A stretch of DNA of 23,754 nt. Source: Candidatus Thorarchaeota archaeon. GTDB lineage: Archaea; Asgardarchaeota; Thorarchaeia; Thorarchaeales; Thorarchaeaceae. The notes beneath the pieces were generated by a model. The model ran no database searches and had not been told where the DNA came from. It was given only the letters and a program-made list of their open reading frames with translations. The stretch covers positions 1 to 23,754 of the forward strand of contig JBHLRZ010000041.1 in NCBI GenBank assembly GCA_048882045.1. Direction: 5' to 3'. The translations under genes and the position numbers were made by a program. Below are positions 5,603 to 9,468 of this stretch, in pieces. Position 1 is the first letter of the stretch. Each line of letters opens with the position of its first letter.

Positions 5603-6799
5603 ATGACGATGAGTGAGCTCAAACGTACAACACTTCCATTCACATCTCTCGTAGGAATGGAAAGGTTGAAGCTAGCTCTGATTCTCAACGGAATCAATCC
5701 TCTCATTGGAGGAGTTCTGATTTCTGGACCAAAAGGGACTGGTAAAACCACAGTTGTTCGTGCATTGGCTGATTTGTTACCAGAAGTTGACGTTGTTGAT
5801 GGTTGCAGATTCGGATGCAATCCTAATCAACATGACCTCCTCTGTTCAGAGTGCTCGGAGAAAGTTGGGTCTGGCAAGAAGCTCAAAGGACATACTAGGA
5901 AGATGCGGGTTGTCAATCTTCCTCTCTCAACAACCGAGGACAGATTGATTGGAGCTCTCGATATTGAGCGAGTTCTTAAAGACGGAATACAAGCACTACG
6001 TCCAGGGATTCTTGCTGAGGCTCATCAAAACGTGCTCTATGTAGATGAAGTAAACCTTCTTCCAGATCATCTAGTAGATGATCTTCTTGATGCTGCTGCA
6101 ACAAAGATCAACGTGATTGAAAGAGAAGGAATATCGATAGCACATCCATCGGATTTTGTACTCATTGGGACCATGAACCCTGAAGAAGGTGAACTCAGAC
6201 CTCAGCTTCTAGATAGATTCCCACTGCATGTTGCTGTTGGATCAAACCACTCAATTGAAGAACGAATGGAATTGGTTCGTCGAAATCTTGAGTTTGAAGA
6301 TGGGCCAGACGAGTTTCGTAAGGTCTGGGAGGAAGAACAGAAGAGATTGAGAGAAAAAATAATCCATGCGAAAGAACTGTTACCGAAAGTTATCCTTCCT
6401 GAGTCCAATCTAAGAGCGATTGCTATGGCCTGTGACGCACTTGAGGTTGATGGGGTTCGACCTGACATTATAATTTCAAAGGCAGCGATTACCAATGCAG
6501 CACTTGAAGGAAGAACAGAAGTTACACTCGAGGACATGAAGATGGCCTCACAATTGGCTCTGAGTCACCGAACTCGAAGAGGAGGTCTTCTGGAACCTCC
6601 AGCACCAGAGGATGTGGATCAGGCAATTACAAAAGCCGCGGAAATCGCCAAGAAGTCTGGTGCTAAGAAGTCTCCCACAGAGGTTCCTCCAGAGGAGGAT
6701 CAATCTGGTCCAAGGATCAGTGGAGGCAGATTCGGTAGAGGCAACAGATACGCAGAGTATGGAAAACAGGAAGGCAAAAAAAAACGCCGACGGGAATAA
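5603..6799 (+). CDS. Mg/Co-chelatase subunit I-like AAA+ ATPase (zero-frame product of a probable frameshifted chlD-type gene)
   Basis: PFTSLVG, Walker A GPKGTGKT, TEDRLIG.LD, Walker B YVDEVN, MNPEEGELRPQLLDRF, LSHR then a Pro/acidic linker. Start at ATG 5603 or 5609; the ORF-track start at 5381 overlaps thrC. Confidence 0.92.
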   Translation: MTMSELKRTTLPFTSLVGMERLKLALILNGINPLIGGVLISGPKGTGKTTVVRALADLLPEVDVVDGCRFGCNPNQHDLLCSECSEKVGSGKKLKGHTRKMRVVNLPLSTTEDRLIGALDIERVLKDGIQALRPGILAEAHQNVLYVDEVNLLPDHLVDDLLDAAATKINVIEREGISIAHPSDFVLIGTMNPEEGELRPQLLDRFPLHVAVGSNHSIEERMELVRRNLEFEDGPDEFRKVWEEEQKRLREKIIHAKELLPKVILPESNLRAIAMACDALEVDGVRPDIIISKAAITNAALEGRTEVTLEDMKMASQLALSHRTRRGGLLEPPAPEDVDQAITKAAEIAKKSGAKKSPTEVPPEEDQSGPRISGGRFGRGNRYAEYGKQEGKKKRRRE

Positions 6800-6814: not shown

Positions 6815-8274
6815 ACCCCATAAAGGGAACCATCTGTTCTATTATAATGGTTGTAATCTTCATGTATTTTGCTTGGATATTTGCTAGTCCCATCAACTGG
6901 CTTTTTGGTCAGACAATACTCCAATTTCCCTCCCCCTTACCATTGATTATCGACACAATTGTCATTGCTCCTGTGATTTGGGTTTTCGTAAGAAAATGGC
7001 TTGAAGTCATGACTCGAAGGACTAGTGGACCAGCAGCAGGTGTTGACACGGTAGAGCCTGGCGAAGGAAAACCAGAGCCAGGTGATGAATGGGGATTAGC
7101 CACACGACCGTACACAGCAAAGAAGGAAACCAAGGTATCTGGGTCCAAGTCCGAAATACGAGAATCACCATATGACCTTGGAGAGGAGTTCTTTGTGAAA
7201 GTCCCAGACATCGATACTGGTGAAGAGCTATTCGATCTAAAGGAACTTCAAAAACGAAGTATGGTCCGTTCTCGAGTTTCCTCAGGAGGATGGATTAAGA
7301 AACGTGTGAGTTCACGTGCAGTAGGGTCTCTCAAATCATCTGACACCATGAAATATGGAAGACCGATTCGTTCTCGCATACCTCCCCGGGAAATCGGAAG
7401 TATTGATCTTCCAGCAACAGTAATAGCAGCGGTAACTCGTACAGGTAAAACCGCTGATGGGAGTATAACACTAACACAAGATGACATTAGAGAGAGTGTA
7501 TTCACGGGACGTACTCCTCTTACAGTAATTCTCGTGATAGATGTCAGTCTCTCCATGAAAGGCAGTATGAAGCAAGTCCGTGAATTCTTGGAACGCCTTG
7601 AGAGTGAAACACGGGGGTCAAAAGATCGAACTGGAATTGTAGCATTCAAAGATAGTGGAGCTGTTGAGATTCAATCACCCACAACAAACTGGAATAAAAT
7701 CTATCGAGCACTAGGACGACTTAAACTGTCGGGACTTACTCCATTGGCTGAGGCGCTCCGAAAATCTCTCGAAACAATTAGACGCGAAAGAATGAGGAAT
7801 GATGACCTTGAACCTCTCATCATACTTATTTCTGACTTCTCTCCCAACATCCCACTTTCTCATTCTGTAGGACCTGGACATGAACTGTATACTCCAATTC
7901 AAGATCTTGTTAGAACTGCTAGACTTGTAAGAAAGGCGAAAGTCCGACTGGCCGCGGTCACAGTGGACCCAGAGCAGTCCAAGTGGCCTTTATTTTTGAA
8001 GCGCCCTTATCACGAAGCTCTCGAGCTCGCAGCAATGTTGAGGGGTAGAAAGGAGGGTCTTCAAGATCCAATTGAAACCATCCTGCAAGTAGATGAATTC
8101 AGGAAGACTTTTGGAGCGTATTTGGTAGCTCGGGCATCTGGAGGACGAGCATATCTCTCAACGGAGCTCATGAAGGAGTCGTCAATCCTTGGTACTCTGC
8201 TATCCTCTAGTCGCTCAAGAGTCCGACTCAGAGAGGAGGACTTACGAGAAGTCGAAGCATACCTGCCCAAATAA
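6784..8274 (+). CDS. Two-TM + von Willebrand factor A domain ORF (ChlD-like C-terminal half), probably expressed as a -1 frameshift fusion; stand-alone ATG at 6847
   Basis: ID..AT..AA pre-VWA segment typical of ChlD, MIDAS DVSLS, GLTPLAEAL (Thr), LISD (Asp), and two hydrophobic segments at the N-terminus. Confidence 0.85.
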   Translation, partial: TPTGIRNPRGDPIKGTICSIIMVVIFMYFAWIFASPINWLFGQTILQFPSPLPLIIDTIVIAPVIWVFVRKWLEVMTRRTSGPAAGVDTVEPGEGKPEPGDEWGLATRPYTAKKETKVSGSKSEIRESPYDLGEEFFVKVPDIDTGEELFDLKELQKRSMVRSRVSSGGWIKKRVSSRAVGSLKSSDTMKYGRPIRSRIPPREIGSIDLPATVIAAVTRTGKTADGSITLTQDDIRESVFTGRTPLTVILVIDVSLSMKGSMKQVREFLERLESETRGSKDRTGIVAFKDSGAVEIQSPTTNWNKIYRALGRLKLSGLTPLAEALRKSLETIRRERMRNDDLEPLIILISDFSPNIPLSHSVGPGHELYTPIQDLVRTARLVRKAKVRLAAVTVDPEQSKWPLFLKRPYHEALELAAMLRGRKEGLQDPIETILQVDEFRKTFGAYLVARASGGRAYLSTELMKESSILGTLLSSSRSRVRLREEDLREVEAYLPK

Positions 8275-8328
8275 CAAGAGTCAGTGCCTCTCTCGATTAT
8301 GTTATTAGCACGCAGTCATTTTCAGACA

Positions 8329-8434
8329 TGCGCACCCGGTCTGAAAGATGTCTGATGTCATAGTGAGCGAGGAGAGCCCCGTAAGGGTCACTATGATTCG
8401 TCTTTTCATGCATCAGACACAGGATCGGTGCGCA
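8329..8434 (+). ncRNA. Candidate structured ncRNA or cis-regulatory leader of unknown family
   Basis: Nested perfect helices 8329-36/8427-34 (8 bp), 8349-57/8411-19 (9 bp) and 8358-66/8388-96 (9 bp), with an apical CCC-GTAA-GGG GNRA loop. Intergenic. Confidence 0.6.
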
Positions 8435-8457
8435 CCTATCATGAGGTGATTGTAGGA

Positions 8458-9468
8458 ATGCTGCAAGGAAAGGTTCCGCCTGAAATCCTGCAACGGTTAG
8501 TATTTGACAAGCTCGGAGCTACTGATTCTGATGTGATACTTGGTCCTAAACTTGGTGAAGACGCTGCAGTAATACGTATTGGAGAAAAGGTGATCATAGC
8601 TGCGACCGATCCGATCACTGGGTCCATCTCAGACGTCGGATGGCTCTCAGTTAATATCAATGCAAATGACATTGCAACATTCGGAATCCTTCCTCGTTGG
8701 TTTTTGGTGACAATTCTGTTACCAACTAATTCAACACCTGAAGAACTTCAAGAGATAATGAAACAGATTGATACTGCTTGTCAGAACTTGGGCATAGCAG
8801 TGGCTGGAGGACATTCAGAGATAACAAAAGGAATTGACAGACCCATAATCACTGGATTCATGATTGGTATGACTGACGAAGGGAAATATGTCACATCATC
8901 TGGAGCAAAACCTGGAGACTCAATTATAGTCACTAAGACCATAGCTATTGAAGGAACATCAATTCTCGCAACCGAGGGGGAGGAGATTCTTGCCAAGCAA
9001 ATACCTGCCACTACAATCACATACGCTCAGAAACTGAGAGAACAGATCAGTGTGGTTGCCGAGGGAGTGGCTGCATATGAAACTGGTTATGTCACAGCAA
9101 TGCACGATCCTACTGAAGGAGGCTTGTCAAATGGACTTCATGAGATATGTGACGCAAGCAACGTAGGATTTGAGATCTATAGTGATGCAATTCCAATAGA
9201 TGATTCGACCTTCAAAATATGTACTGCATTGGATGTCAGCCCCATGGAGCTAATCAGCAGCGGATGCATGATTGTATGTTGCGATGAGAAGAATGTGAAT
9301 GAGGTTATCAACACGATTAGAACAAGAGGTGTTTCAGCAACTGTGATTGGCCAGATTGTAGAAGATCCCAAGAGAAGAATTCTTGTGACAGATTCGGATG
9401 GAATTCCTCTGAAACGTCCAATTACTGACGCACTTTGGGATGCACTGAAGAAGCTCAATCACTCATGA
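8458..9468 (+). CDS. AIR synthase (PurM/HypE/ThiL/SelD) family protein
   Basis: GEDAAV, TDPITG, NANDIA, GGHSE, MHDPTEGGL, ISSG motifs. SD GAGGTGA 8443-8449 favours ATG 8458. No C-terminal PRIC, so not a bona fide HypE. Confidence 0.9.
   Translation: MLQGKVPPEILQRLVFDKLGATDSDVILGPKLGEDAAVIRIGEKVIIAATDPITGSISDVGWLSVNINANDIATFGILPRWFLVTILLPTNSTPEELQEIMKQIDTACQNLGIAVAGGHSEITKGIDRPIITGFMIGMTDEGKYVTSSGAKPGDSIIVTKTIAIEGTSILATEGEEILAKQIPATTITYAQKLREQISVVAEGVAAYETGYVTAMHDPTEGGLSNGLHEICDASNVGFEIYSDAIPIDDSTFKICTALDVSPMELISSGCMIVCCDEKNVNEVINTIRTRGVSATVIGQIVEDPKRRILVTDSDGIPLKRPITDALWDALKKLNHS

Follow-up and report, generated by a model that had tools for sequence, protein, structure and literature searches.

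The gap between a VWA gene and an AIR-synthase-related gene in a Thorarchaeota genome can be drawn as a long rod-like hairpin, which raises the question of what this structure is. The window, i.e. the whole stretch of DNA analysed here, comprises 23,754 nt of contig JBHLRZ010000041.1 (assembly GCA_048882045.1, Candidatus Thorarchaeota archaeon, Thorarchaeaceae). The intergenic gap carrying the hairpin is 183 nt long, from the end of the VWA gene at 8274 to the ATG of the AIR-synthase-related gene at 8458. An initial annotation had left the rod unexplained, with a small RNA, guide RNA, riboswitch-like leader or MITE-like repeat as options. We found that the hairpin is a real small RNA of Thorarchaeota (Asgard archaea) without a catalogue entry. 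It is almost certainly an H/ACA-type RNA, and probably an archaeal box H/ACA guide of the single-hairpin form, extended by an outer helix and with two targets in helix 69. Archaeal box H/ACA guide anatomy with a likely 23S helix 69 target thus replaces the label "unexplained". Elsewhere in the window, the only A9 run (6776-6784) lies at the end of a ChlI-like AAA+ ORF. In the -1 frame, an open stretch starts just ahead of this run and continues into the VWA ORF, an arrangement consistent with a chlD-type programmed frameshift.

Conservation and fold of the hairpin

The elements from which the rod had been drawn are all present: outer arms 8329-8336/8427-8434, helices 8349-8357/8411-8419 and 8358-8366/8388-8396, CCC-GTAA-GGG at 8378-8387 and TTATTA at 8302-8307. 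Folding against shuffles gave z-scores of -3.98 on the plus strand and -4.49 on the minus strand, with 0/200 shuffles as good. Both strands beat the shuffles, so thermodynamics alone does not choose between them; the plus strand, preferred in the initial annotation, is favoured by G-U covariation, the upstream TATA and the motifs of K-turn and ACA. An Rfam scan of the hairpin found no family at the gathering score (best E 0.82), and hence no catalogued family, in keeping with the earlier failure to match it to a known RNA. SECIS, hammerhead, C/D box, SRP and tRNA readings were rejected on inspection, the invariant bases being unlike their cores.

A covariance model identified one copy of the RNA in 74 of the 86 genomes of the window's family, BLAST recovered the hairpin in 29/36 family relatives, and named records with the core pattern were almost all Thorarchaeota. 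The hairpin is also single-copy in the window's own genome; one copy per genome at a fixed locus is not the behaviour of a MITE-like repeat. The downstream AIR-synthase-like gene is constant in 48/48 loci long enough to test, whereas the upstream gene varies. In G037, from the second of the order's two families, the same gene is preceded by a diverged homologue. No recognisable RNA is present in one genus (three genomes, 96-99% complete) that has retained both genes and the TATA-like element, so the RNA is dispensable there. Its genomes (L236-L238) have a 130-150 nt spacer upstream of the AIR-synthase-like gene, with the TATA-like element in place, and one retains a TTCATGC..ACA remnant. This genus offers a natural negative control for the predicted pseudouridines. 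In G041 the AIR-synthase-like gene is present and the RNA is absent. The same genome (L215:1490-1610) has an unannotated H/ACA-type RNA, apparently of two hairpins each followed by ACA, with the 5' guide UUGAGU.

Orthologues in distant Asgard families were beyond the reach of covariance models, whereas a motif search for the pocket and K-turn detected them, with matches in 178/399 Asgard genomes and sparse matches in controls. What connects these "orthologues" of other Asgard families is the shared motif and not an alignment over the full length; loose pattern searches were at chance level. Public reads (three runs, 0.10 word share) yielded only low-depth contigs of relatives, which run past both RNA ends, give no information on ends or strand and contain no read evidence of a discrete small RNA.

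Four helices of the RNA covary, with two-sided changes in 31/35 pairs, a level reached by 0/500 shuffles; the alignment behind this count was fitted to the model, and an unfitted MAFFT alignment gives the same picture. Two-sided changes occur in 8/9 pairs of the lower stem P1, 5/6 pairs of the upper stem P2 and 12/13 pairs of the outer helix P0, where 95% of cells are paired. Compensatory changes thus back the outer and lower helices of the rod. Its apical half fared differently. The inner 9-bp helix TCATAGTGA/TCACTATGA has 0 compensatory changes, two of its columns are broken in about half of the homologues, and it is perfect in only 2/66 family members. The GNRA loop is likewise not conserved (CCC-GNRA-GGG in 3/66 family members), and the supposed 11-nt and 14-nt bulges are the two strands of the upper stem plus the K-turn and the 3' pocket strand. 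The rod as drawn, with inner 9-bp helix, GNRA loop and two one-sided bulges, is a fold peculiar to the window's genome, where it competes with the guide fold (-42 vs -37 kcal/mol, the K-turn not being scored). RNAalifold proposed an alternative inner hairpin pairing a K-turn strand with the 3' pocket strand, which is uninformative because it is built of invariant pairs only.

Box H/ACA anatomy and the outer helix

The features of the locus, in window coordinates, are as follows.

8294-8308, plus strand: promoter-like element, CGATT then TTATTA (8302-8307); conserved family-wide, putative function
8330-8342, plus strand: 5' arm of outer helix P0, G8330 being the predicted transcription start; covariation, start-site context
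8343-8349, plus strand: internal-loop 5' strand facing the ACA box; unpaired and variable in alignments
8350-8358, plus strand: lower stem P1, 5' strand; two-sided changes in 8/9 pairs
8359-8364, plus strand: 5' guide strand CAUAGU (plus U8358); complementary to 23S 1913-1918/1919, places U1911
8365-8370, plus strand: upper stem P2, 5' strand, 6 bp; covariation
8371-8374, plus strand: K-turn non-bulged strand with GA tandem 8372-8373; GAG invariant in 66/66
8375-8390, plus strand: apical stem-loop (K-turn C-stem) with variable loop; alignment, GNRA not conserved
8391-8397, plus strand: K-turn bulged strand with C8391, bulge N-R-U at 8392-8394 and GA at 8395-8396; C..TGA invariant, bulge always NRU
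8398-8404, plus strand: upper stem P2, 3' strand, one bulged base; covariation
8405-8410, plus strand: 3' guide strand UUCAU(G/A); 6/6 with 1915-1920 (U1921), weak with 1905-1910 (U1911)
8410-8418, plus strand: lower stem P1, 3' strand; covariation
8419-8421, plus strand: ACA box inside an internal loop, 14 nt below the pocket top; invariant
8422-8436, plus strand: 3' arm of P0 (8422-8433) and NCC tail (8434-8436); covariation
8443-8448, plus strand: Shine-Dalgarno-like GAGGTG of the downstream gene, outside the structure; sequence
8458-9468, plus strand: AIR-synthase-related gene (AIRS + AIRS_C); below the cut-offs of HypE, ThiL and SelD

The pocket is a 6x5 internal loop between the 9-bp lower stem and the 6-bp upper stem, and the invariant bases of the RNA are the two pocket strands, the K-turn and the ACA at 8419-8421. 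In a sequence-level test, the GA/GA tandem, NRU bulge and closing G-C of the K-turn are all invariant, and position 3b.3n is mostly A.G, as in Kt-7. The ACA lies 14 nt below the pocket top in 52/66 family RNAs, 15 nt in the other 14/66, and 13 nt in the G037 homologue. These dimensions equal the productive geometry of archaeal H/ACA RNAs, a 6-bp upper stem and 14-15 nt to the ACA (PMC2377435), and the hairpin fits fold family 10/5/9, subfamily 65, the commonest (PMC4652768). The window's genome encodes Cbf5, above the family cut-off and with the catalytic aspartate motif, together with Nop10 and L7Ae; its Gar1 Pfam match (L318) spans one in-frame TGA. The guide RNA option of the initial annotation was thus borne out to the extent of a conserved, covarying, non-coding plus-strand RNA with archaeal box H/ACA anatomy. 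Neither Rfam nor the literature searched yielded an H/ACA guide from Asgard archaea.

What sets the RNA apart is the outer helix. P0 has 10-16 bp (mode 13) and follows directly after the ACA in 65/67 loci. The flank duplex reaches -21 to -26 kcal/mol with P0, as against -1 to -13 kcal/mol in the motif-sharing guides of other Asgard families, from which P0 is absent. The classic subtype has its ACA on a free single-stranded 3' tail; here the ACA abuts the outer helix, and the hairpin is therefore filed as a variant rather than a classic single-hairpin H/ACA member. The archaeal H/ACA literature that we searched contains no description of an enclosed ACA box. That the ACA is predicted to sit within an internal loop, with no free tail to carry it, counts against the guide reading. 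Another Asgard family, represented by G182 (L286:1500-1600), has a different H/ACA-like hairpin with a K-turn, ACA at 15 nt and an 8-bp outer helix beyond the ACA; enclosing helices may recur in Asgard guides. The strands of the G182 hairpin appear to match the 23S peptidyl-transferase region.

The TATA-like TTATTA upstream, which the initial annotation had pointed out, is conserved and begins about 28 nt (range 27-31 in 60/61) before the first G of P0, and the start-site context Y-1/G+1 occurs at the G8330 position in 60/66. With this 28-nt spacing and pyrimidine-G context, the first G of P0 probably begins the transcript. A sigma-70 promoter scan is unsuited to archaea. The NCC-like tail has C as its second base in 67/67 and exact ACCA in 10/67, an SD-like sequence follows within 35 nt in 63/67, and none of the 67 loci has a T5 run downstream of the RNA; there is no terminator. 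From the spacing, transcription would start at G8330, driven by the conserved TATA promoter, and the RNA would form the 5' portion of the AIR-synthase-like mRNA. P0, a helix backed by covariation, would pair the transcript 5' end with the sequence just after the ACA and leave the NCC tail. Its most likely role is that of a signal or barrier for excising an RNA of about 107 nt from the leader and protecting its ends. A G-started helix of about 12 bp, a discriminator-like base and CC resemble a tRNA acceptor end; the RNA may be released by a nuclease of tRNA 3' processing, trimmed back to the helix or circularised. Inspection of the alignments found no bulge-helix-bulge motif conserved at the outer helix ends. 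By analogy with the known RNP, L7Ae would bind the K-turn and Cbf5 the lower stem and ACA, with Nop10 and Gar1.

Predicted pairing of the pocket with helix 69

The window's assembly has no rRNA and targets were therefore taken from relatives, 30 family genomes supplying 23S and five supplying full 23S/16S. Numbering is that of E. coli 23S, assigned by the conserved loop sequence. Yeast 2258 equals E. coli 1915 (PMC2794176). The G037 23S (L262:1700-2650) carries an insertion of about 800 nt right after helix 69 with a LAGLIDADG-like ORF, a probable archaeal rRNA intron with a homing endonuclease. Action of the RNA on helix 69 is likely; as for single uridines, the evidence leans towards modification of U1911, and modification of U1921 is proposed tentatively, at slightly less than an even chance.

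The 5' strand CAUAGU pairs with 23S 1913-1918 in 66/66 family RNAs, one variant keeping a G-U pair, and the 5' guide 7-mer has a single site in 23S+16S. For the G037 homologue the 3' strand also fits, and U1911 is the best-scoring site (4/300 shuffles). Motif-sharing RNAs of other Asgard families are short hairpins, mostly with ACA/ANA at 14 nt, whose 3' strands begin CUCC, pairing with the GGGAG before U1911. Their 5' strand is UAUAGU where the 23S has A1918 (G251, G394) and CAUAGU where it has G1918 (G043, G037 and the window's family). This switch, read in genomes where both guide and 23S were available, is, at the level of sequence and on few independent lineages, a guide-rRNA compensation. 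Two genomes with guide variants, G093 and G028, lack an assembled 23S to compare with their changes. The two-sided U1911 guides and the 1918 compensation across Asgard archaea point to U1911 as the ancestral target.

In the window's family the 1910:1920 pair of helix 69 has flipped from G-C to C-G, which leaves U1911 with weak 3' pairing: the U that opens the 3' guide mismatches C1910 in 66/66 family RNAs, and the best two-sided score for U1911 does not beat shuffles (252/300). With a G or A at this guide position, pairing to the final base of the 5' guide would extend P2, and this may account for the absence of a clean compensation. The 3' strand UUCAU(G/A) pairs 6/6 with 1915-1920, a register with the correct spacing to present U1921. 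No other uridine has a 6/6 3' duplex in each of the four family genomes tested; a random hexamer gives such a duplex at any helix-69 uridine 1.6% of the time. The last 3' guide base, opposite U1915, is only G or A, and it stays A in nine RNAs whose stem partner no longer pairs. Against this, the 5' side offers only 2 bp in the U1921 register, the duplex is weak (about -2.5 kcal/mol) and the junction is mismatched in G037 and G070. We observed A-U at 1910:1920 in the G070 23S (L143), which restores the U1911 junction and breaks the U1921 junction.

Pairing by the 3' guide is reported to matter more than 5' pairing (PMC2377435, PMC7075261), whereas in Haloferax in vivo guide pairing on both sides is needed (PMC7075261). 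S. islandicus sR148 modifies two helix-69 sites by its 3' guide only, one of them in vivo via a 6-bp duplex, as shown by deletion (PMC11077068). U1921 corresponds to yeast Psi2264 and human Psi3747 (PMC2794176). Since the two registers together explain all invariant pocket bases and either alone half of them, a dual-target guide for U1911 and U1921 is the favoured reading of the sequences. In register one the 5' strand would lie on 1913-1919 and present U1911, the ancestral Asgard target; in register two the 3' strand would lie on 1915-1920 and present U1921, the best fit since 1910:1920 became C-G. Cbf5 would isomerise the presented uridine.

Two other 23S sites were tried and rejected: one near 445 at first appeared to covary with the G/A guide base, but several genomes have a mismatch or no U there, and one near position 29 is weak and fails in G037. 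Position 1971, which corresponds to yeast 2314, is a G in the family and so cannot become pseudouridine. A genome-wide search for strict contiguous targets gave two matches, which is chance level. Contiguous matches to tRNAs were likewise at chance level.

Alternative explanations and relation to known H/ACA RNAs

The constant position of the hairpin directly upstream of the same gene, 26-48 nt from the first codons and even at loci with a different upstream gene, also suits a cis-acting leader that binds L7Ae or H/ACA proteins and tunes the AIR-synthase-like mRNA, guiding being vestigial or secondary. No terminator separates hairpin and gene, and L7Ae regulates archaeal mRNAs via leader K-turns (PMC5539422). 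We consider such a leader unlikely. The structure does not include the Shine-Dalgarno, to which no conserved pairing extends, mRNA tuning does not require invariant rRNA-complementary pocket strands or an ACA ruler, one genus keeps promoter and gene without the hairpin, and G041 has the gene without the RNA. The 5' leader position and the strong terminal inverted arms had also suggested a ligand-sensing riboswitch, a MITE or a chance fold, readings to which we assign next to no probability. Single copy per genome, conserved synteny, covariation, the lack of an Rfam match and of an expression platform all speak against them, and the K-turn, the ACA and rRNA complementarity account for all invariant bases. 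For the riboswitch-like leader of the initial annotation, the external Shine-Dalgarno and the missing terminator and Rfam match leave no support; the single copy at a fixed locus and the covariation refute MITE and chance fold.

Two further alternatives accept the H/ACA class and question the function. The poor two-sided helix-69 pairing in the window's family would suit a true guide whose main substrate lies outside helix 69, at another rRNA site or in a tRNA, mRNA or small RNA; archaeal pockets can have many targets (sR435; PMC11077068), and four genomes share a weak site (5+3 bp) close to the 23S 5' end. However, searches of 23S, 16S and the tRNAs found revealed no contiguous target that is both strong and conserved, and with the 445 site losing its U in several genomes and strict genome-wide matches numbering two, as by chance, a main substrate elsewhere is very unlikely. 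Quite unlikely, too, is a non-modifying, snR30/U17-like chaperone that would bridge helix 69 (1913-1919) and GCAUGAA (1963-1970), with the rRNA looping out at the pocket bottom and domain IV held open during large-subunit assembly. Both sites occur in inverted order in all family 23S read, the second 43 nt downstream; the window's RNA matches them with 7+8 Watson-Crick pairs (shuffle P 0.0004), the 3' duplex at 1963-1970 is the most stable (-9.1 kcal/mol), and a 7-bp 3' duplex ends 7 nt before the ACA, the spacing of snR30 (PMC2664660). Yet the family-invariant cores give only 6+5 or 7+5 pairs (P 0.085 and 0.02), 24/66 RNAs have A opposite the rRNA C, which breaks the duplex (-2.4 kcal/mol), the first base is mismatched in G037 and one family member, and the extension requires opening of the covarying lower stem. 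Relatives in other families are plain U1911 guides without a complement to 1963-1970, and the RNA is lost in one genus whereas snR30 is essential. The fuller version of the proposal, in which a large-subunit chaperone with a tRNA acceptor-like outer helix is released from the mRNA leader by tRNA-processing enzymes, is equally improbable; if true, archaea would gain their first H/ACA RNA without a modifying role, and this in a relative of the eukaryotes.

If the dual-target guide reading is right, it predicts pseudouridines in the helix-69 stem of Asgard ribosomes, at 1911 and at the eukaryote-type position 1921, made by a guide whose fit moved between two sites once one rRNA base pair flipped. 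The locus would also be a natural test of Cbf5 activity when the ACA box is confined to an internal loop, and of guide release from an mRNA leader. The RNA class is well known, and the unusual part is the extra end helix enclosing the ACA box; this is a specialist's result within a known class, not a new system.

With the classic single-hairpin archaeal H/ACA sRNAs, such as Pab91 and Pab160/Pf9 of Pyrococcus and sR115 and sR435 of S. islandicus (PMC2377435, PMC4652768, PMC11077068), the Thorarchaeota RNA shares the 9-bp lower stem, 6x5 pocket, 6-bp upper stem, K-turn, ACA at 14-15 nt and a full protein set encoded in the genome. Unlike them, it encloses its ACA in a helix of about 13 bp joining both ends, lies in an mRNA leader, matches no Rfam family and would hold each proposed target mainly by one pocket strand. 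Like sR148 (PMC11077068) and stem-loop 2 of H. volcanii sR-h45 (PMC7075261), it is predicted to serve two helix-69 uridines with one pocket: 1917/1923 for sR148, 1915/1917 for sR-h45 stem-loop 2 and, by our prediction, 1911/1921 here. sR148 has neither lower stem nor ACA, whereas the Thorarchaeota RNA has both plus the extra helix. Yeast snR3 (Psi2264, helix 69; PMC2794176) shares the predicted site U1921 and is a two-hairpin eukaryotic snoRNA without a K-turn. An inverted two-site rRNA contact with 7-nt ACA spacing, as in snR30/U17 (PMC2664660), can be drawn for the window's RNA, but its sites lie in 23S domain IV and the contact is not conserved family-wide. snR30/U17, of which no archaeal homologue is known (PMC7991803), targets the 18S expansion segment ES6, has an H box and a two-hairpin body and is essential; the Thorarchaeota RNA shares none of these traits, being a single hairpin that is absent from three 96-99% complete genomes of one genus.
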